Shown: positions 2,489-14,293, numbered from the stretch's first letter. The stretch is 14,293 nucleotides of DNA from Bacteriovoracaceae bacterium (GCA_049599895.1 JBMYPC010000082.1:1-14293); one strand, 5' to 3'. The notes: generated by a model not told the origin, from the letters alone. Program-made: numbers and translations.

Positions 2489-3436
2489 CTATTTGCAAAG
2501 ATCTTTTAATTCTTCAAGCAAAGATTCAACTTTATCTCCGAGAGTTTTTGAAGGGAGTTCAACAATTGCAACAGCTGTCTCGTCGTGTTTACCTGTTCGG
2601 TAAAAATTGTGGGATACAAATCTTCCTGAAGTAAGATTTGGAGCTCTGTCATATTGACAAGTGTTTATATCATATAAAGTTGAAATGGCTCTCTGTGCCT
2701 TCATTTTCCTGTCATCCATTAGAACTTTAGTTGTGTAGAATGCATTTTCTTCCCATCTTGTTGTAACAACCTTCGAAACATCTTTGAGGTTAAACTTTGA
2801 TCTGTCCCAAGTATTATTACTAGTATGGGTTGAGTCACAGTTTTTATAATGAAGTTGTCGGTCGTAGATTAATGTACAATAGTCTCCTGTGTGAGAGATT
2901 GATTGCCTTACATATGGTTTTTTAGCTCGATGTCTGACGTATGCCTTAGGGGAAGTATCCACCTTTATATAGAAGTCACCAATTTCTTGTTCAATATAAT
3001 ATTTAAGCTCTCTAAATACATCTGCTTTCATTCTTCCTGCCAGATTTAGTCTGTAATCACTGTATGACCCTTCAGGCAAGGTTCCATTTCCTGTAATAAC
3101 AGAACTCCCTTCAATAGAGGTGCTTCCCTTTACAGTTATGTTTCCTTGTATTCTTACGTTGTCAGTAATGAAAGCAAACCCTGTAATGACTGATGTGCCT
3201 AATATTCTCGCCTGGCCATCTACGTTTGCATTGCCGCATATTGCTGCTGATGGTGCCAGAAAAACGTGCTCGCCAATATAAGCGGTGTTGGCTACAAATC
3301 CTCCTCTTTGAGGATTGCGATGTCTATAATTTTCAAAATAATAACCTTGCTCGCCAGGACAGAGACCAGAAGTTGCAGCTATGGCTTCAAGAGTTATAAG
3401 TGCCTGAATAACAAAAAGTAGTTTTTTCATAATCAT
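2489..3436 (-). CDS. Secreted protein with left-handed beta-helix (hexapeptide-repeat-like) N-terminal domain and unknown C-terminal domain
   Basis: Signal-peptide-like MKKLLFVIQALITLEAIA; HRNPQRGGFVANTAYIG followed by 6-residue periodic repeats (ICGNAN/VDGQAR/ILGTSV/ITGFAF/ITDNVR/IQGNIT/VKGSTS/IEGSSV). AGGA RBS upstream; start at 3436 or 3430. Confidence 0.8.
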   Translation of the reverse strand: MIMKKLLFVIQALITLEAIAATSGLCPGEQGYYFENYRHRNPQRGGFVANTAYIGEHVFLAPSAAICGNANVDGQARILGTSVITGFAFITDNVRIQGNITVKGSTSIEGSSVITGNGTLPEGSYSDYRLNLAGRMKADVFRELKYYIEQEIGDFYIKVDTSPKAYVRHRAKKPYVRQSISHTGDYCTLIYDRQLHYKNCDSTHTSNNTWDRSKFNLKDVSKVVTTRWEENAFYTTKVLMDDRKMKAQRAISTLYDINTCQYDRAPNLTSGRFVSHNFYRTGKHDETAVAIVELPSKTLGDKVESLLEELKDLCK

Positions 3437-3622: not shown

Positions 3623-3638
3623 TGGCACAGGCCTTGCT
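3623..3638 (+). promoter_or_regulatory. Sigma54 (RpoN) -24/-12 promoter of the peptide cassette
   Basis: TGGCAC-AGGCC-TTGCT is an exact match to TGGCAC-N5-TTGCW; GG 3624-3625 and GC 3636-3637 are 10 nt apart; about 60 nt upstream of ATG 3700. Confidence 0.88.
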
Positions 3639-3699
3639 TCATTCTCCAGCATCGAAAAACTGATTCCCAAGAATATAGGGATCATATGAAGGAGAACTC

Positions 3700-3843
3700 A
3701 TGAAAAAGATGGAAGAACAAACAGTGATCATTCCAGAAGGGAAGAGAACATCAATGGACAACATGCTTTGCCTTGTGGACTTTGAAGAGCTGAGCGCTGA
3801 AGAAGAAAGAGAAGTTGAAGAAGCGTTAGCACTTGCTTTCTAG
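3700..3843 (+). CDS. 47-aa acidic peptide, putative RiPP precursor/scaffold: MKKMEEQTVIIPEGKRTSMDNMLCLVDFEELSAEEEREVEEALALAF
   Basis: Hand-translated; not listed in the ORF track (shortest entries 60 aa). Strong RBS AAGGAG at 3689-3694, ATG 3700, TAG 3841-3843; flanked by a sigma54 promoter and a terminator; directly upstream of tailoring enzymes. Confidence 0.85.
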   Translation: MKKMEEQTVIIPEGKRTSMDNMLCLVDFEELSAEEEREVEEALALAF

Positions 3844-3849
3844 ATTAAT

Positions 3850-3874
3850 GGGGTCAATGTTGGCCCCTTTTTTT
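3850..3874 (+). terminator. Rho-independent terminator/attenuator between the peptide gene and the enzyme genes
   Basis: GGGGTCA-ATGT-TGGCCCC (7-bp stem with one U-G pair) followed by T7 at 3868-3874. Confidence 0.8.
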
Positions 3875-3884
3875 GGGTGAATTT

Positions 3885-5072
3885 ATGTTTTACAGTAATG
3901 ACGAAGTTAAAATTCAAAACCAGTTTAGCTCGATTGATGGGAAACAAATCTATACCGGGACCTATTGGGATGAGTTTGGTCTTTCTCAGGCCTTTCTCCC
4001 TTACGACTCAGATGTTCTCGTTCTAGGACTTGCTGAAGGAGCTTGTGTTCGACCCATTCATGCTTCTGGTCGAGTGGGAAGTCTTGATTGTGTCGACTAT
4101 GATGGAAAGCTTCTTGCGAAATGTCGAAGCCTTTTTGAAAAAAAGTTTCGTGAAATTCCATTTCAAACTTATGAGTCATGTGCTTTTGATTTTCTTGGGC
4201 AAACGACGAAGAAATATGACCTTATCTGGATTGATCTCTATCTCAAAGAGAGTTATAGCCCAATTTATTTTAATCCTTATTTTTGGAAGCTTGCGAGTGA
4301 GAAGTTAAATCCCAGAGGAAGAGTTCTTGTGAATTCCTTTGGGCTTCCGATGCATCTAAAGCCATTTTCTACAGACAATCCGCAGTTTAAGTTTCTTAAC
4401 TTCATTAATCTCCAATTTGATGAGATTCGTGTGATTCCTTATAGAAGAAATATGACTCTTGTGATTGAAGACAAAAAATCACCATTAAACTTCTCAGTTC
4501 CTTCTCTTAAGCTTTGTGACCAGATGGTCATGAAAACCTTTGCACACAAGTATTATCATGCTGAAAAACTATCTGATCTTTTAAAAATCAAAACTTCGTC
4601 TGAACTAGGAGAGTTGAAACTTGAAAGTATCGACGTTTCAATGAGAGCGGGGTGGAAACTTTTTATTGAGAAGTTAAACGACAGAATTAGAGACCTTAAA
4701 TTAAAAAGACCACTTCTTAAAGCACCTCGAGAGATCCGAGACCTTGTTCAGGATGAAGTTTCCTCACTCTCATTATTAGAAGACATGCTAAAAAAGAAAA
4801 GTCGAGAGATTATCTTTTTCCCTGTGTTTTTATCGGGTGAAGTGAATTGTTCAGAACTCGACGTCACTTGGTTTGTGAATTGGTTTTTTCAAAATCACAA
4901 CCGACTGCGCCTTGAGATGAAAGAGATCTTTTTTAGTTATTTTCTTCCTTTAATTACATCAATCGTTATTAATCCAAATGCAAGTAGTAAAAGTTATAGC
5001 TTTCGAATGAATCAGGTTCTTGATTTCTATCTTCAAGAGCTAAAGCTGATAACAATTGAGGGTCTTCAATGA
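3885..5072 (+). CDS. Class I SAM-dependent transferase (spermidine-synthase-like/methyltransferase N-terminal domain) with about 190-aa unknown C-terminal domain
   Basis: Motifs VLVLGLAEG (motif I), LDCVDYD (acidic end of strand 2), YDLIWIDLY, LNPRGRVLVN. ATG 3885 with GGGTGA RBS is preferred over TTG 3873, which lies in the terminator U-tract. Confidence 0.78.
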   Translation: MFYSNDEVKIQNQFSSIDGKQIYTGTYWDEFGLSQAFLPYDSDVLVLGLAEGACVRPIHASGRVGSLDCVDYDGKLLAKCRSLFEKKFREIPFQTYESCAFDFLGQTTKKYDLIWIDLYLKESYSPIYFNPYFWKLASEKLNPRGRVLVNSFGLPMHLKPFSTDNPQFKFLNFINLQFDEIRVIPYRRNMTLVIEDKKSPLNFSVPSLKLCDQMVMKTFAHKYYHAEKLSDLLKIKTSSELGELKLESIDVSMRAGWKLFIEKLNDRIRDLKLKRPLLKAPREIRDLVQDEVSSLSLLEDMLKKKSREIIFFPVFLSGEVNCSELDVTWFVNWFFQNHNRLRLEMKEIFFSYFLPLITSIVINPNASSKSYSFRMNQVLDFYLQELKLITIEGLQ

Positions 5073-5671
5073 AAGAGAATCATGATTTTTTTGTTGTTGA
5101 TAACTTCTATCAAGACCCTCTAAAGGCAAGAGAGTTAGGACTAACTTGCGAATATCTTCCTAAAGAAGCGGGGCTTGATGGCGAGATCTGCATCGAGTCT
5201 CGGAAATCTTATTTCAATGAGGCCTTGGTCAAAAAACTTGAAAGTATTATTCAAAAGCCAATTGATTTTGATCCCGCAAAGTTTGCTTTTGGCGTTTTTG
5301 CAAAGGCAGAAACTATTAATCAAGGAAGATCAAGAGTTCACGTTGATCCTACTGATTGGGTTGGGATTGTTTATTTAAGTGAGAGGTGCTCATCCCAATC
5401 AGGCGGTGGCACAAGTTTTTATCAACATATTAAAACAGGTTTCTCAAGGCTTCCTAATGATAAAGAGGCCTTCATCAAAAATGTTCTTAAAAGAGATGCG
5501 AAAGACTTAAGCGCCTGGAGAGAAATCCATAAAGTTGAAATGAAGTTTAATCGGCTTCTTCTTATCAAAGCCGGAGAGCTTTTTCATAAGGCGACAAATT
5601 ATTTTGGGGAGAACTCTCAAAGTGCACGGTTGACTCAACTCTTTTTCTTTAACGAAAAGAAGGCATTATGA
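5069..5671 (+). CDS. Fe(II)/2-oxoglutarate-dependent dioxygenase, DUF6445-like (paralogue 1)
   Basis: VVDNFYQDP, HVD (HxD), GIVYL, GGGTSFYQH, MKFNRLL, distal FH, RLTQLFF (candidate 2OG-binding Arg). ATGA overlap with the upstream stop at 5069-5072. Confidence 0.82.
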   Translation: MKENHDFFVVDNFYQDPLKARELGLTCEYLPKEAGLDGEICIESRKSYFNEALVKKLESIIQKPIDFDPAKFAFGVFAKAETINQGRSRVHVDPTDWVGIVYLSERCSSQSGGGTSFYQHIKTGFSRLPNDKEAFIKNVLKRDAKDLSAWREIHKVEMKFNRLLLIKAGELFHKATNYFGENSQSARLTQLFFFNEKKAL

Positions 5672-6279
5672 AAAAGCTTAAAGTGATTGATAACTTCTAT
5701 AAAAAACCTGAAGAGATTCGAAATTTGGCACTTAAGACCGATTATATCAATGTCAAAAAACTTCGCTATCCAGGAATTCAAAGTCGAAAGAGTTTTACGA
5801 ACTTAGATCTTCAAAAGAAGTTTGAAGATGTTCTTGACACTAAACTTGAGATCGATCCAAAGAAATACACCTTTGGAAAATTTCGCATAATGATCAATGA
5901 ACCATTCACCTTTAAAGCTCATCTTGATGGTCTGACGAATCTCACAGGTCTTGTTTATCTCAACCCAGAAGATTCTTGCTCTGGTGGAACTGCTTTTTAT
6001 CGCCACCGAAAGTCTGGACTCGAAGGGCCTTTGTCTCAAAATGAAGTTGAGGCCAGAGGTTTTTCTTCAAACGAAGAGATGTTTAAAGAGCTTATTGGAG
6101 ACGACAAGTACGATCCTGAATCTTGGGAGATGACGGACTTTGTCCCAATGAAATTTAATCGACTCCTCGTTTTTAAAGGCTATCACTACTTTCACTGTCA
6201 TACGAGTTCCTTTGGAACTGACAAAGAGAGTGGTCGTATGACTCAGCTTTTTTTCTTTAACGAAGTATTAAACTCATAA
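5668..6279 (+). CDS. Fe(II)/2-oxoglutarate-dependent dioxygenase, DUF6445-like (paralogue 2)
   Basis: VIDNFYKKP, YPGIQS, HLD, GLVYL, GGTAFYRH, MKFNRLL, YFH, RMTQLFF. ATGA overlap at 5668-5671. Confidence 0.82.
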   Translation: MKKLKVIDNFYKKPEEIRNLALKTDYINVKKLRYPGIQSRKSFTNLDLQKKFEDVLDTKLEIDPKKYTFGKFRIMINEPFTFKAHLDGLTNLTGLVYLNPEDSCSGGTAFYRHRKSGLEGPLSQNEVEARGFSSNEEMFKELIGDDKYDPESWEMTDFVPMKFNRLLVFKGYHYFHCHTSSFGTDKESGRMTQLFFFNEVLNS

Positions 6280-6293
6280 CCAAAAGAGGAATT

Positions 6294-7454
6294 ATGAAAA
6301 ATCGAATCTATTTTGCTTCACTTATGACGAACATCGGAAACTGGTTAACCTTTCTTGCGATTGCTCTTTTAGTGAAAGAAAAGCATGGTGTCCATCAAGT
6401 TGCCTACACTTTTATGGTTCAGGCGATTATCCCACTTTTGTTTTCTCAATCGTTAGTCAAATTTATTCCCGAATCAAAACAGAAAAAGGCATTTTTTATT
6501 GTGCAAATCCTTTTTGCTCTTAATCTTGGCCTTCTTTTAAGTTTTAAATCAATGGGAGCGATTTATCTCTTTTTAATTGTTTCAAGTCTTCTTAAAACTC
6601 TCTCAAATCCCTTATTTCAAAGTTTAATTGGAAGGTGGGTGAAAACTGAAGAGCAAAAAGAAGTTTATACTAGAGTAGGGGCGATCAATGCGACTTGCTT
6701 AGCCATTGCTCCTCTTTTTGGCGGTTATGTTTCCCTTAAGTTTGGTTATGACTCGGTTTTTCTTATCGACATGATAAGTTTTTTGATTCCACTTTTTGTC
6801 TTAGCACCAATGAAGGCCTTAAAAGAAGCCTCTTCAGAAGTGGAAGAGTTTAAGTTTTCAAAACTCTTTAAAAGCATTGCCGGCGTCCCTAAAGGTCTCA
6901 ACCTTGAACTGAAAAAAGTCTTATTTATTTGGTTTTTATTTTTAAATGTTGGAGCCTTTATTAACGGAATTGAATTTCCTATCTTTGAAAAGCTTTCTCT
7001 TTCAAAAGATCAAATTGGTCTTATTATTGGGATGTGGGGTCTTGGCAGTCTTCTTTCTTTTCTTTTGGCAAAGACTTCCTTTAGTAAAAAAGACCTGTTT
7101 GCATTAAATTCAGTTTCTTTAACTTCTGGAATCGTTGCCTTCGCTTTTACACAAAACTTTTATATTCTCGCTATTAGTTTTCTTGTTCTAGGGTTTTCGA
7201 TTGCTAATCTCAGTGGTGAAATTCGAGCAAAGCTTCAAAAGAGTGTTCCGGAGAATACGAATCCTCTGCCAATATGGGCCTTTTCAAATCAAATCATCTC
7301 TCTTTCTAATATAATCTGTTATGGATTACTTGGACTTTTGACGAATAAAGTTGACCTTGAATATTTAGGAGGTGGTCTTGCTCTGCTGACAATGATTCTT
7401 CTCTTTGGAAAGATTCAGGTGGAAAAGAGATTTTCGGTACTTCGAAAGGCTTAG
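6294..7454 (+). CDS. MFS transporter (efflux-type, 386 aa)
   Basis: About 11-12 hydrophobic segments; N-terminal TNIGNWLTFLAIALLV and APLFGG motifs typical of MefA/DHA3-like MFS exporters; AGAGGA RBS. Confidence 0.85.
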   Translation: MKNRIYFASLMTNIGNWLTFLAIALLVKEKHGVHQVAYTFMVQAIIPLLFSQSLVKFIPESKQKKAFFIVQILFALNLGLLLSFKSMGAIYLFLIVSSLLKTLSNPLFQSLIGRWVKTEEQKEVYTRVGAINATCLAIAPLFGGYVSLKFGYDSVFLIDMISFLIPLFVLAPMKALKEASSEVEEFKFSKLFKSIAGVPKGLNLELKKVLFIWFLFLNVGAFINGIEFPIFEKLSLSKDQIGLIIGMWGLGSLLSFLLAKTSFSKKDLFALNSVSLTSGIVAFAFTQNFYILAISFLVLGFSIANLSGEIRAKLQKSVPENTNPLPIWAFSNQIISLSNIICYGLLGLLTNKVDLEYLGGGLALLTMILLFGKIQVEKRFSVLRKA

Positions 7455-7851: not shown

Positions 7852-9219
7852 TTAGGGACATGGATCTGATTTTATATCTTCCAAGATTCTGTACATGAGA
7901 GCTTTTGAAAGCCTTAGTTGACGGCAAACCTCATTAATCTTTCCATGGTTCGATTCAAGCCAGTGTTTAACCATTAGTTTTTCCACCTCACGAAGCAAAG
8001 GTTGAAGACCGTTCACTTTTACGAATTCGTAAGCTTTAGTTCCAAGTAAATTTGTAGGGTCTTCATTTTGGTTTCTCTCATGGCCGAAAAGGAATTTCTG
8101 ATTCTTGTTCATATAAACAGGAAAGTCATTGTCCGTAACAATTCCCTTAGACTTCATTACGACCTCTTGAGCCACATTCTTAAGCTCTCGAATATTGCCA
8201 GGCCAGGCATAATCAAGAAGAAATTCTTTGGCCTCGTCTGTGAGATAGAGTCGTCTTGCGCTTTGGTTTAAAAAGCTTTCAAAGAGATCGAGAATGTCCT
8301 CTTTTCTGTTTTCTAATGGGGGAACTTCAATTTCCTGACCTCTTAAACGAAAGTAAAGATCAAGGCGAAACTTTTTTTCTTCAATCAGATCTTCAAGAGC
8401 GTCACATGTGGCGCTTATAAGAGTGAATTGACTCTGAATTTCCTCGTGGCTTCCCACTGGACGAAAAGACTTTTCTTCAATAACTCGTAAGAGTTTCTTT
8501 TGAATCTCAATATTGATAGAGCCAATCTCATCTAGAAAAAGTATTCCACCATTTACCTTTTTTAAAATTCCTTCTTTATCAGAAGTGGCCCCAGTGAAGG
8601 CCCCTTTTTTATGTCCAAAAAGTTCTGATTCGATTAACTGTGAAGACATTTCTGAAAGATTGAGATGGAAGAAAGGTTTATCAGGTCTTGTTGCTTGATG
8701 GAATGCTTTTGCAAGTTGCGTTTTCCCAACTCCTGTTGGGCCAGTGATGAGAAGATTTGATTGATGTTTAATTTGGTTTTGAAAGAGTTTTAGAATTTCA
8801 TTTCGAAATGAAGGGTCTTTCGTTCGATATTCTTTAAATATTTCTCCTTCAAGTTCAAGGAGTTTTAGAGTTTGCACTGACTTTTGAATCTCCTCAAAAA
8901 TAAGTTCTTTTGACTTGAGCTTATTTAAAAAACTATGGCAGCCAAGTTCGTAAGCTTGTCTTAAAGATTGCACATCTTCTGATCCTGTAAGAATAAGAGG
9001 AAGCTTAATTTTTTCTTTAAGAGATCTAAGGACTTCAAGCCCACCCTGTGGTGATTCTTCTAAAGAAAGATCAATAAGAGCAATTTCAAACTTCTTGTTT
9101 TGAGCTTTAAGTTTTGCTGATTGAATTGATCTTGCCAGCGTTACTGTTCCAAGTGTTTCAAGTTGACGGCTGAGCGCAACTGCCCAAAGTGGATCGTCTT
9201 CCACTAATAAAATGTTCAT
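7852..9219 (-). CDS. Sigma54-dependent response regulator (NtrC/AtoC family: REC + AAA+ + Fis-type HTH)
   Basis: Receiver ILLVEDD...LIDLSL; Walker A GPTGVGKT; ESELFGHKKGAFTGA; Walker B LFLDEI; FRLDLYFRL; WPGNIREL; C-terminal HTH GKINEVCRQLRLSKALMYR. Confidence 0.95.
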   Translation of the reverse strand: MNILLVEDDPLWAVALSRQLETLGTVTLARSIQSAKLKAQNKKFEIALIDLSLEESPQGGLEVLRSLKEKIKLPLILTGSEDVQSLRQAYELGCHSFLNKLKSKELIFEEIQKSVQTLKLLELEGEIFKEYRTKDPSFRNEILKLFQNQIKHQSNLLITGPTGVGKTQLAKAFHQATRPDKPFFHLNLSEMSSQLIESELFGHKKGAFTGATSDKEGILKKVNGGILFLDEIGSINIEIQKKLLRVIEEKSFRPVGSHEEIQSQFTLISATCDALEDLIEEKKFRLDLYFRLRGQEIEVPPLENRKEDILDLFESFLNQSARRLYLTDEAKEFLLDYAWPGNIRELKNVAQEVVMKSKGIVTDNDFPVYMNKNQKFLFGHERNQNEDPTNLLGTKAYEFVKVNGLQPLLREVEKLMVKHWLESNHGKINEVCRQLRLSKALMYRILEDIKSDPCP

Positions 9220-10278: not shown

Positions 10279-11184
10279 TTAGAAGACCGGATAGAAATCA
10301 CCAAATTGAATGTTACTTGTAATCACTGTGGTGAGATAACCTGATGTGAGAAACAAGGTTCCCTCGTAAATTGAAAAGCCTATAAGCTCGTTTTGGTTCT
10401 CTTCAGCATCAGCTTGTCCTTCGGTATGAACACTGTCATTGAGCTTATAAAATAGCTGAATCCCTTTTTGAATAACAGGGAAGATAATTAATGAGAGCAT
10501 GATCTTAAGAATGACTTGGATTGAGAACCAGCGGATCTCTAACATGTCTTGTTTTAGCGAAGAAGCAATAATCAGACTCCAACCAATAAAGAACCCTAAA
10601 TAAGAAAAAGCAATCGCAAGACTTTTTTGAACGAGTAAACGATTGAAAGAAAGTTTTGAAACGATGGCATAACTTTTGGTGGCAAAGCCAATGAGAACCA
10701 TGGAAAGAAGCCATGTGATCATGAGAAGGACAAGAGATTCTTTTGCAACAAAAAGTGATGACTTAAGGATAATGGCAACTCCAATGCAGTGACCAAAGCT
10801 TATGATCGAGTAGGCAAAGTTTTTTCTTTTTAAGACCTCATCTTGGTACTCGAAGTTATAAAGAACGATACTTTCAATAATGTAAATTGATCCCAAATAA
10901 AGAAGAATTACAATAATTGAAAGAATAAGAAACTCAATAATCGCAACAAGAATTCCCGAAGAGATGTGAAAATAAAACTCTGAAAAAATTATTCCAAGAC
11001 CAATGATTCGAGCGAGAAGATGAAGAGTGTCTGGAGCATTCTTTGAAGGGTGAAAACGGCTAAAGATCGTTTTTCGAGTAGAGGGATAGAAAATCGCGTG
11101 AACGTATTTATAGATGTAGAGGACGGCACAAAGAAGAATTGTAAAAATAACTCTCAGGATGAGTTTATCAAATAGTTCATTCAT
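10279..11184 (-). CDS. Polytopic membrane protein, DUF350 (YjfL/UPF0719)-like with internal duplication
   Basis: About 8 TM segments; repeated motif EVLKRKNFAYSIISFGHCIGVAIIL and LLVQKSLAIAFSYLGFFIGWSLIIA. ATG 11184 forms an ATGA overlap with the upstream stop (11181-11184) and is preferred over 11220. Confidence 0.7.
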   Translation of the reverse strand: MNELFDKLILRVIFTILLCAVLYIYKYVHAIFYPSTRKTIFSRFHPSKNAPDTLHLLARIIGLGIIFSEFYFHISSGILVAIIEFLILSIIVILLYLGSIYIIESIVLYNFEYQDEVLKRKNFAYSIISFGHCIGVAIILKSSLFVAKESLVLLMITWLLSMVLIGFATKSYAIVSKLSFNRLLVQKSLAIAFSYLGFFIGWSLIIASSLKQDMLEIRWFSIQVILKIMLSLIIFPVIQKGIQLFYKLNDSVHTEGQADAEENQNELIGFSIYEGTLFLTSGYLTTVITSNIQFGDFYPVF

Positions 11185-11879
11185 TTCAGGATTGTCCCCA
11201 CTGATTCTGTTATCTTCCATGGAGGAATATTAAAGAGTTTTATAAAGAGTGCTTTAAAATCGATTTTTCTTTCTCGGTTTTCTCTTTGGTATTGAAAGGC
11301 CTCTTTGGTAATGATTCCTTCCGTTCCAAATTCTCTATTGAGTCCATAAAAAGCTCTATTATCTTTTTTGTATTGCTCAAGCTTTATGTAAAAGTCCTTA
11401 GAAGGTCTAAACTCACCCCAACCAAAAAACTTTGGAAATTGTTTATAGACCCGGTGAAATTCCCAAACTCTTTGTCCCGAAGGTTGTCTCTCCCAGGTTC
11501 CGTAAGCAGGACTTCCAAGATAAAGGCTTCCTGGAGGAAGTGGGATTGAGCTTTCAAGGTTTGATCGCTCCGCTCTTCGAAACAATGAAAGACCTATGTT
11601 GGGCTGGTTTCTTTCCCAATGTCTTCTTGAAGTTCTCACGATGACTGTTTTTGGGGAGCGAAAGCCACGGATGACTAAATACTTATGGTAATAAGTTTTA
11701 ATTAGGAATCCAGTTTTAAAAGAATCAATAAGAATGACAGAAAGATCTCCTCCTCTAAAAAAGTTAGAGTAGGTCACTTCGCTAACAATATAAGGAGTTC
11801 CTTTACTTGATCTTGAGAGGGATTTCGTCAATCCCAAAAACATCAAAACCAGAAGGATATAAAGAGAGAACGTTTTCAT
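11181..11879 (-). CDS. Conserved-looking hypothetical exported or membrane-anchored protein
   Basis: N-terminal hydrophobic segment; aromatic-rich motif PPGSLYLGSPAYGTWERQPSGQRVWEF; translationally coupled to the DUF350-like gene. Confidence 0.75.
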   Translation of the reverse strand: MKTFSLYILLVLMFLGLTKSLSRSSKGTPYIVSEVTYSNFFRGGDLSVILIDSFKTGFLIKTYYHKYLVIRGFRSPKTVIVRTSRRHWERNQPNIGLSLFRRAERSNLESSIPLPPGSLYLGSPAYGTWERQPSGQRVWEFHRVYKQFPKFFGWGEFRPSKDFYIKLEQYKKDNRAFYGLNREFGTEGIITKEAFQYQRENRERKIDFKALFIKLFNIPPWKITESVGTILK

Positions 11880-13627: not shown

Positions 13628-14293
13628 TTAAAGCTCAGAGCTTCCTTTTTTGCTCTTGTCTAAACCTTTAGCGTAGAGCTCGTCTTCATCAAGATACTCT
13701 GGATCTTCTTCATCGGGTTTATCAAAAGCATCGTTATAACCCCAGCCATAATCAACGTTATTATTATCAGACTCGTCATCATCTTCAGGGTTGTACTCAT
13801 CGTTAAGCTTAACAGAGTTTGGAGAGTCATCTTGAGAAGATGAGAATCCATCGGCTTTTTCTTCAACTTGATCTATTGAAACAGCTTCTCCTTCTTCTTC
13901 AGAGTTTGATCCAAAATCATTTGCGAGAGGAGTCTCTACATAATCAGAGTTTAAGCTCTCTGTTTCTTCAACTTCAGGCTCTGCGTTGAGTTGGTTTTGC
14001 TCTTTGTATTTTCTGATGGCCTCTTCTTTTGAGAGCTTTCCATCATCTGCTTTTTTTGGAGCGGCTGTTTTCTTCGTGGCTTTTTTTGTTGTTTTCTTTG
14101 CGGCTTTCTTTTTCGTCGCCTTTTTCTTAGTGGCCTTCTTTTTCGTCGCCTTTTTCTTAGTGGCCTTCTTTTTTGTCACCTTTTTCTTAGTGGCCTTCTT
14201 TTTCGTCGCCTTTTTCTTAGTGGCCTTCTTTTTTGTCACCTTTTTCTTAGTGGCCTTCTTTTTCGTCGCCTTTTTCTTAGTGGCCTTCTTTTT
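13628..14293 (-). CDS. Histone H1-like Lys/Ala/Thr-repeat protein with a highly acidic C-terminal tail; 5'-truncated by the window edge
   Basis: KKKAT/KKKVT pentapeptide repeats continue in frame to base 14293, so GTG 14239 is internal; D/E-rich C-terminal half. Confidence 0.85.
   Translation of the reverse strand, partial: KKKATKKKATKKKATKKKVTKKKATKKKATKKKATKKKVTKKKATKKKATKKKATKKKATKKKAAKKTTKKATKKTAAPKKADDGKLSKEEAIRKYKEQNQLNAEPEVEETESLNSDYVETPLANDFGSNSEEEGEAVSIDQVEEKADGFSSSQDDSPNSVKLNDEYNPEDDDESDNNNVDYGWGYNDAFDKPDEEDPEYLDEDELYAKGLDKSKKGSSEL
14106..14293. repeat. Coding tandem repeat with 15/30/60-nt hierarchy
   Basis: 30-nt unit TTTTTCTTAGTGGCCTTCTTTTT(C/T)GTC(G/A)CC made of two KKK(A/V)T-coding 15-mers; 14161-14220 is identical to 14221-14280. 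Confidence 0.95.

Follow-up and report, generated by a model that had tools for sequence, protein, structure and literature searches.

Three described pathways to peptides that are made on ribosomes and modified after translation (RiPPs) come closest to the locus reported here, a five-gene cassette at positions 3623-7454 of a stretch of 14,293 nucleotides from a Bacteriovoracaceae bacterium (GCA_049599895.1 JBMYPC010000082.1:1-14293); the whole stretch is called the window below. The pantocin A precursor carries a central core between a leader and a follower, and its cluster includes a 2-oxoglutarate (2OG) oxidase and an efflux pump, with no peptidase among paaP, paaA, paaB and paaC (PMC12596934). 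In the polytheonamide pathway, PoyE N-methylates Asn with S-adenosylmethionine (SAM) and PoyI hydroxylates Asn and Val (PMC9505594). In the microcin C pathway, MccD carries out a SAM-dependent transfer of a 3-amino-3-carboxypropyl group (PMC12596934). The C-terminal domain of METTL13 and the fungal NHMT use a spermidine-synthase-like fold to methylate a protein N-terminus (PMC8624817, PMC10349129), and spermidine-synthase-like domains that lack the acidic residue of the GxG(D/E)G motif, which is needed for decarboxylated SAM, are described as protein N-methyltransferases (PMC10349129).

The cassette encodes a putative precursor peptide, a SAM-fold transferase, two DUF6445 Fe(II)/2OG oxygenases and a transporter of the major facilitator superfamily (MFS). 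We conclude that it is real, conserved, apparently undescribed and RiPP-like, and we favour, with a probability of roughly 0.65, a pantocin-like pathway in which an internal core of the peptide would be oxidised twice, N-alkylated, cut out and exported. The resemblance to pantocin A, which extends to a central core flanked by leader and follower, a 2OG oxidase and an exporter, concerns the way of working only: instead of a ThiF-like enzyme such as PaaA, which is missing among the 14 window open reading frames (ORFs), there are two DUF6445 oxygenases and a SAM-fold enzyme, the core is S-x-Asx-N-M (Asx, Asn or Asp) as opposed to E-E-N, and the exporter belongs to the MFS. With polytheonamide the cassette would share the pairing, guessed here, of SAM-dependent N-methylation and Fe/2OG hydroxylation on a ribosomal peptide, a likeness to PoyE and PoyI that lies in described chemistry and not in a homology comparison. 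There, however, the two reactions tailor a long precursor with a nitrile-hydratase leader alongside radical SAM enzymes, whereas here they would be the whole pathway, acting on peptides whose members range from 38 to 51 residues. The 26 homologous peptides that were collected match no Pfam or NCBIfam family at cut-off and have no nitrile-hydratase-like leader among their matches, and the 14 window ORFs contain no radical SAM gene. The substrate of MccD in microcin C is a phosphoramidate that MccB produces, and the decarboxylase MccE acts after MccD; MccB and MccE are not found here, there is no ThiF, and the C-terminal residue of the peptide is variable (Asn in 2 of 12 peptides). METTL13 and NHMT differ in being eukaryotic, in having large proteins as substrates and in showing, within the aligned range, no C-terminal helical domain such as that of the cassette enzyme. 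Because it lacks the enzymes that define pantocin, microcin C and the proteusins, the cassette was filed under none of these classes.

All features of the cassette lie on the + strand. The putative precursor gene (3700-3843) encodes 47 amino acids, divided into a leader of 16 residues, a core of eight residues (T-S-x-(N/D)-N-M-x-C, residues 17-24, positions 3748-3771), delimited by conservation across homologues, and a follower of 23 residues (3772-3840), which has a fixed length and is predicted from its residue pattern to form an amphipathic helix. It is preceded by a ribosome-binding site (RBS) AAGGAG (3689-3694), five bases 5' of the ATG, and by a sigma-54 (-24/-12) promoter-like site (3623-3638), which lies 62-77 bases 5' of the start and agrees with the consensus at 11 of 11 positions. 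The strict sigma-54 pattern occurs at 15 sites in the genome of 3.27 Mb, where 4.6 are expected, and 0.02 are expected in the window. A terminator-like hairpin followed by a T run (3850-3867) stands between the peptide gene and the enzyme genes. These begin with the SAM-fold transferase (3885-5072, 395 amino acids), whose ATG at 3885 is supported by homologues starting M-F/Y-Y, and continue with the first (5069-5671, 200 amino acids) and second (5668-6279, 203 amino acids) DUF6445 paralogues and the MFS gene (6294-7454, 386 amino acids; PF07690, E 8e-18), which has its own RBS after a gap of 14 bases and likely encodes an exporter. The first-pass annotation, made from the sequence alone, had placed the sigma-54 site, the 47-codon ORF, the RBS, the hairpin and four co-oriented genes at these positions, where all of them were found; the ATGA overlaps it gave for the first three enzyme genes are two in number and join three genes. 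Its statement that class-defining RiPP enzymes and peptidases are missing agrees with a Pfam scan of the 14 window ORFs (a Lys-rich ORF at 13628-14239 is outside the 14), in which ThiF, YcaO, radical SAM, Lan, ATP-grasp and peptidase families were not matched. A public contig covering 2400-9500 is identical to the window; it is possibly the source of the window DNA and hence not independent. A sequencing run from a second study contains short identical pieces at low depth.

The SAM gene was used as the anchor in searches for related loci, so that peptides found beside it would not be the result of circular selection. There were full-length matches in 8 of 401 genomes of the phylum and in 4 of 109, 5 of 182 and 3 of 12 genomes of further sets, which overlap. 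Among 237 genomes of the window's family, the window's genome was the only one with such a match. The total is 14 SAM-anchored loci, which come from 13 genomes and are distributed patchily. Not counted were nine short matches confined to the N-terminal domain (E 1e-14 to 8e-13), which were taken as ordinary spermidine synthases; the window genome's own was the one that was read. The phylum is presumably Bdellovibrionota, since the peptide of one genome, G703, is identical to a protein that is assigned to Bdellovibrionaceae.

In twelve of the 14 loci, the window included, the operon begins with a homologous small ORF, which is accompanied by a hairpin and DUF6445 genes. These loci belong to 5 families and 8 genera and come from 11 genomes. 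According to the first-pass annotation, a co-conserved short acidic ORF upstream would support its claim. Such an ORF is there in 12 of 14 loci, but acidity is not a general feature, the net charge of the locus peptides extending from -8 to +7, with two of the 12 at +6 and +7. Two intact oxygenases together with the MFS gene are present in 10 of the 12 peptide loci. The MFS orthologue likewise occurs in 10, the remaining two loci being truncated at a contig end or broken by an insertion, which makes 10 of 10 where that end is complete. Beside the peptide, the cassette genes of the related loci are SAM, DUF6445 and MFS genes only, and the absence of any gene that would provide another substrate was counted in favour of the peptide as substrate. 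As is general among RiPPs, a small candidate precursor gene is here co-conserved with putative modifying enzymes. Gene order is as in the window in nine of the 12 loci; the other three read peptide, DUF6445, DUF6445, MFS, SAM. This order bears on an alternative in which the oxygenases alone would act on the peptide, by reactions that go beyond hydroxylation (desaturation, cyclisation or cleavage at Asn-Met-x-Cys), and the SAM enzyme would act later, on the released product or in self-protection. It would agree with the facts that the peptide tracks the DUF6445 and MFS genes without exception and directly precedes the first oxygenase in those three loci, and that the SAM gene shifts to the operon end or stands alone. 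On the other hand, none of the 12 peptide loci lacks the SAM gene (in part a consequence of its use as the anchor), and its product has an extra helical domain of 150 residues that is missing from small-molecule spermidine synthases. We regard this alternative, which overlaps with the pantocin-like pathway and differs from it in order and chemistry, as highly improbable. One genome (G058:C6, L039 4466-6232) contains a second copy of the cassette, which a serine-recombinase-like gene interrupts behind the first oxygenase, and in another (G050) the cassette adjoins tRNA-like repeats; both suggest that the cassette is mobile.

A profile built from eight of the peptides retrieved 22 clusters from a protein collection. 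Across the set of 26 peptides, which was partly selected by motif, there is no variation at S18, N21 and M22, while T17, N20, C24, L43 and V45 are kept in at least 90%. Mean identity among the eight genera of the anchored loci is 0.70 in the core, 0.17 in the preceding nine residues and 0.34-0.36 in the follower, in which L43 is kept in 8/8 genera. The leader varies in length between 8 and 21 residues; the follower has 22-23 residues, with no indels in any of the 12 loci. The conserved and potentially modifiable core would thus lie apart from a recognition segment, another trait of RiPPs, if the segments have the roles assigned to them here. Asp replaces the first core Asn (position 20) in two peptides, that of the window among them. 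Over pairs of the 12 loci, the core codons differ by 183 synonymous and 134 non-synonymous changes, and since they vary synonymously, the constraint is on the protein. Purine-rich sites are found 5' of all 12 locus peptides. Strong matches to the peptide profile occurred at cassettes only, in 7 of 401 genomes (E < 1e-12) and 7 of 384 (E < 1e-5). Five weak matches (E 0.002 to 0.2) were dropped; four of them fall inside long ORFs or on the strand opposite such ORFs, where cassette genes are lacking, and the fifth overlaps a gene end. In one genome of the window's family (G271, L070 1426-1584), a short frame with weak likeness to the core (E 0.004) overlaps the end of a gene for 321 amino acids, with no cassette genes nearby; it may be a chance match or a decayed remnant.

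The window hairpin has a folding energy of -14.1 kcal/mol (z -2.6 against base shuffles). A hairpin lies 0-12 bases 3' of the peptide stop in all 12 loci, with z at or below -2.6 in 11 of them (55 bases). Sigma-54-like sites with a score of at least 8 of 11 were found in seven loci only, at -46 to -77 (shuffle p < 0.05 in five), and the first-pass description of the cassette as sigma-54-driven does not carry over to the loci in general. The site in G449, with a spacer one base short, was not counted. The placement of the hairpin is relevant to the main alternative, a free-metabolite pathway in which the SAM enzyme and the oxygenases would make a small molecule, starting from an amine or amino acid, with the peptide as regulatory leader or accessory subunit. 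Mugineic acid synthesis, which employs nicotianamine synthase together with 2OG hydroxylases and an MFS exporter, is an analogue. A hairpin this close to the stop, together with a core at a fixed distance from that stop, is what an arrest peptide requires. However, pairing of a hairpin arm with the coding region as an antiterminator was better than 95% of codon shuffles in none of the 12 loci, and signs of attenuation or arrest were missing from these loci: there is no single-codon run, and the last residue and the stop codon vary. The attenuator test is a simple one and leaves room for control by ribosome occlusion. A search of Rfam gave two sub-threshold chance matches only. Taking these results together with the evidence on the SAM gene given below, we judge a free-metabolite pathway to be rather unlikely.

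The structure model of the SAM enzyme (predicted local distance difference test, pLDDT, 95.8) consists of a spermidine-synthase-like domain (residues 1-240) and an all-helical C-terminal domain (246-394). Its best fold matches are spermidine synthases (Z 16.6), and the METTL13 C-terminal domain is matched with Z 15.1 (root-mean-square deviation 3.2, 179 residues aligned, 17% identity). In common with SpeE it has these best fold and profile matches (SpeE profile, E 1.7e-19), the G-x-G-x-G motif and an Asp, D117, whose counterpart in SpeE is the second Asp of the motif D-V-I-I-V-D, the catalytic one. It differs from SpeE in the extra domain, in scores that remain below the curated cut-offs (27.9 against 249.55 bits for TIGR00417, SpeE; 21.7 against 22.9 for PF01564), in a loop R187-R188-N189 that replaces the SpeE P-T-Y-P loop, and in the acidic position of the GxG(D/E)G motif, which is mostly lost: D or E is found in 6 of 76 relatives, among them the window protein (Glu51). 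G25, D29, G48, D117 and N150 are invariant in all 76 sequences. The conserved D117 would also suit a free metabolite as substrate, as would the R-R-N loop, which could fit a small zwitterionic acceptor; the position of this loop in SpeE presumably has a role in acceptor binding. The family comprises 80 clusters (50% identity) at E < 1e-30, and a second clade, for which 20 clusters were looked up, includes Bacillus, Parageobacillus, Sutcliffiella, Nocardioides, Nonomuraea and Streptomyces; members from Bacillus, Streptomyces and Nonomuraea are often labelled spermidine synthase. Loci of this distant clade were sought in metagenome, viral and plasmid searches, which gave none, and in a genome scan, which gave one weak, unrelated locus. 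The helical domain has no profile match in solved structures or Pfam; fold searches barely covered it, and a new fold is not claimed. A co-fold of the enzyme with SAM and the peptide scored 0.03 where the mark was 0.32 and is evidence neither way.

SAM decarboxylase was detected in three of five cassette genomes tested, and neither family was found in the other two. Because the acidic residue is kept in 6 of 76 relatives and SAM decarboxylase is missing in two of five genomes, transfer of a methyl or aminocarboxypropyl group to nitrogen is likelier for the family than aminopropyl transfer. The aminopropylation (+57 Da) that the first-pass annotation had listed is accordingly disfavoured family-wide, and the SAM enzyme is, across its family, probably not an aminopropyltransferase. 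For the group transferred we would put methyl at even odds, aminocarboxypropyl somewhat lower, as a tentative second choice, and aminopropyl as an improbable third.

The twin Fe/2OG dioxygenases of the first-pass annotation were borne out, as both middle genes carry the Fe(II)/2-oxoglutarate metal triad and match PF20043 above cut-off, with H-x-D...H and Arg kept in the first paralogue. All 120 aligned relatives have H85, D87 and H176 (numbering of the second paralogue), and at least 90% have R190; 28 of the 120 also match the 2OG-Fe(II) family PF13640. In a quick tree, one branch (support 84) divides the first copies of all six labelled loci from the second copies, and as low a split was given by 2 and 0 of 500 shuffles. 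Because the copies separate on one branch, the pair is old, and specialisation of the two is probable. Outside the cassette, fusions of DUF6445 with TPR, glycosyltransferase and N-methyltransferase domains are seen, often in viruses, which is what a protein hydroxylase would be expected to show. A structure model from an alignment of seven rows was unusable (pLDDT 48.7). The only Atlas neighbours are DUF6445 proteins, and solved structures, searched by sequence and by profile, yielded chance matches only. A third, stand-alone DUF6445 gene is present in the genome of the window (L041, G000:C112, about 81-710), next to an acetyltransferase-like ORF and without a peptide. In G089:C134 (L033 429-1063, 2607-4998), the first oxygenase is split by a frameshift, and a CoA (coenzyme A)-ligase-like gene and a second MFS gene lie upstream on the same strand.

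From the gene set, its co-conservation, the pattern of core and follower and the folds and motifs of the enzymes, we infer the peptide as substrate, the sites, the transferred group, cleavage and export, in the following manner. The small gene, with the hairpin behind it, would be transcribed in excess to supply the precursor. The follower of fixed length would serve as a handle that keeps the core in register, and the short variable leader would matter little. Each DUF6445 enzyme would oxidise one site, most simply by beta-hydroxylation of the pair Asx20 and Asn21. This pair was chosen because Asp is tolerated at the first position while the amide is invariant at the second, and as an exact assignment it is doubtful. 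The SAM enzyme would transfer an alkyl group to a nitrogen, that of the Asn21 amide or that of an amine exposed by cleavage. Host proteases would then release a small modified fragment, which the MFS protein would export. That the cassette represents a new RiPP class with new chemistry and no class-defining enzyme of a known kind, having DUF6445 enzymes and a spermidine-synthase-derived enzyme with a follower-binding helical domain as maturases, we propose tentatively, at somewhat less than even odds. In its boldest form, this proposal would have an aminocarboxypropyl group on a hydroxy-Asx core, a ribosomal metallophore or antimetabolite of predatory bacteria as product, and Bacillota and Actinomycetota would have a sister pathway; on its own, the metallophore detail is very unlikely.

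Several points weigh against the pantocin-like pathway. The 12 loci are related by descent or transfer and are not 12 independent trials, and modification of the peptide by the cassette enzymes is our reading of the genes. In one locus, which also meets a contig end, the first oxygenase is frameshifted, and Cys24 is absent from one of the 12 locus peptides. In the window itself, aminopropyl transfer would be possible, as the enzyme has Glu51 and the genome a SAM decarboxylase gene, beside a canonical speE on another contig. Gene neighbourhoods were read for the SAM-anchored loci, not for the Bacillota and Actinomycetota relatives. Among the Pfam matches there was no RiPP recognition element (RRE/PqqD) family, the helical domain 246-394 not having been folded and searched alone. 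Moreover, two genomes, G177 (99% complete) and G733 (82% complete), have an intact SAM gene without the cassette, with no peptide upstream of it and no match to the peptide, DUF6445 or MFS genes genome-wide. Because 2 of 14 loci keep the SAM gene alone, the enzyme may accept a free metabolite; the first-pass interpretation offers no account of these two genomes. Against a free-metabolite pathway, the loss of the peptide coincides exactly with the loss of oxygenases and MFS gene, and a FastTree tree of the SAM family puts the two lone genes at two separate places within the cassette clade, a pattern that is compatible with decay. The lone SAM protein of G733 (G733:C67; that of the other genome is at G177:C5) has a relative in the protein collection (P0027), and a lone lineage may persist.

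The same Pfam scan shows no peptidase among the window ORFs, and this last point against the pantocin-like pathway would also suit an alternative in which the modified peptide remains whole and intracellular, with a role as metal- or redox-binding partner, signal or cofactor precursor, while the MFS protein moves a substrate or by-product. The conserved follower positions L43 and V45 are in keeping with this, as are the core Met and Cys, which could bind soft metals. However, the MFS gene is present in every locus that is complete at that end, no conserved target enzyme or receptor adjoins the cassette in the loci read, and the pantocin A cluster, listed without a peptidase, still releases a tripeptide (PMC12596934). 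We therefore consider an intact intracellular peptide quite unlikely and retain the pantocin-like pathway.

Outside the cassette, the window contains a gene on the - strand (7852-9219), convergent with the cassette, for a sigma-54-dependent response regulator with receiver, AAA+ and Fis helix-turn-helix domains. It is a possible activator of the promoter at 3623, but no such gene was observed next to related cassettes, and we do not count it as a component. Divergent from the cassette promoter is a gene (2489-3436, - strand) for a protein of 315 amino acids with a signal-peptide-like start and a hexapeptide-repeat stretch, whose matches to LpxD and Svx/AvrXca are weak and far under cut-off. 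An open frame of 767 amino acids (166-2469, + strand), which may be cut at the contig start, matches no Pfam family and has an N-terminal half with Cys and a Ser/Gly-rich linker. Genes for a DUF350 membrane protein and an unnamed partner of 232 amino acids (10279-11879, - strand) lie downstream of a glutaredoxin gene and one for an HD-domain protein. The product of the Lys-rich ORF mentioned above (13628-14239, - strand) has tandem KKKAT-type repeats and an acidic tail and is histone-like in composition.

A search of the open-licence literature, which leaves subscription journals uncovered, turned up no description of the cassette, of the peptide motifs, of DUF6445/PF20043 or of a RiPP with a spermidine synthase and a dioxygenase, and a single search of the same literature turned up no such cluster for this phylum. 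With its five genes, the cassette is suited to testing two enzyme families for which no reaction is known: DUF6445, frequent in both bacteria and viruses, and the spermidine-synthase-like family, which reaches Bacillus, Streptomyces and Nonomuraea. With a candidate substrate of 47 amino acids and three invariant residues, the chemistry is directly testable. If the proposed pathway is true, it would add a RiPP class that is missed by marker-based mining.

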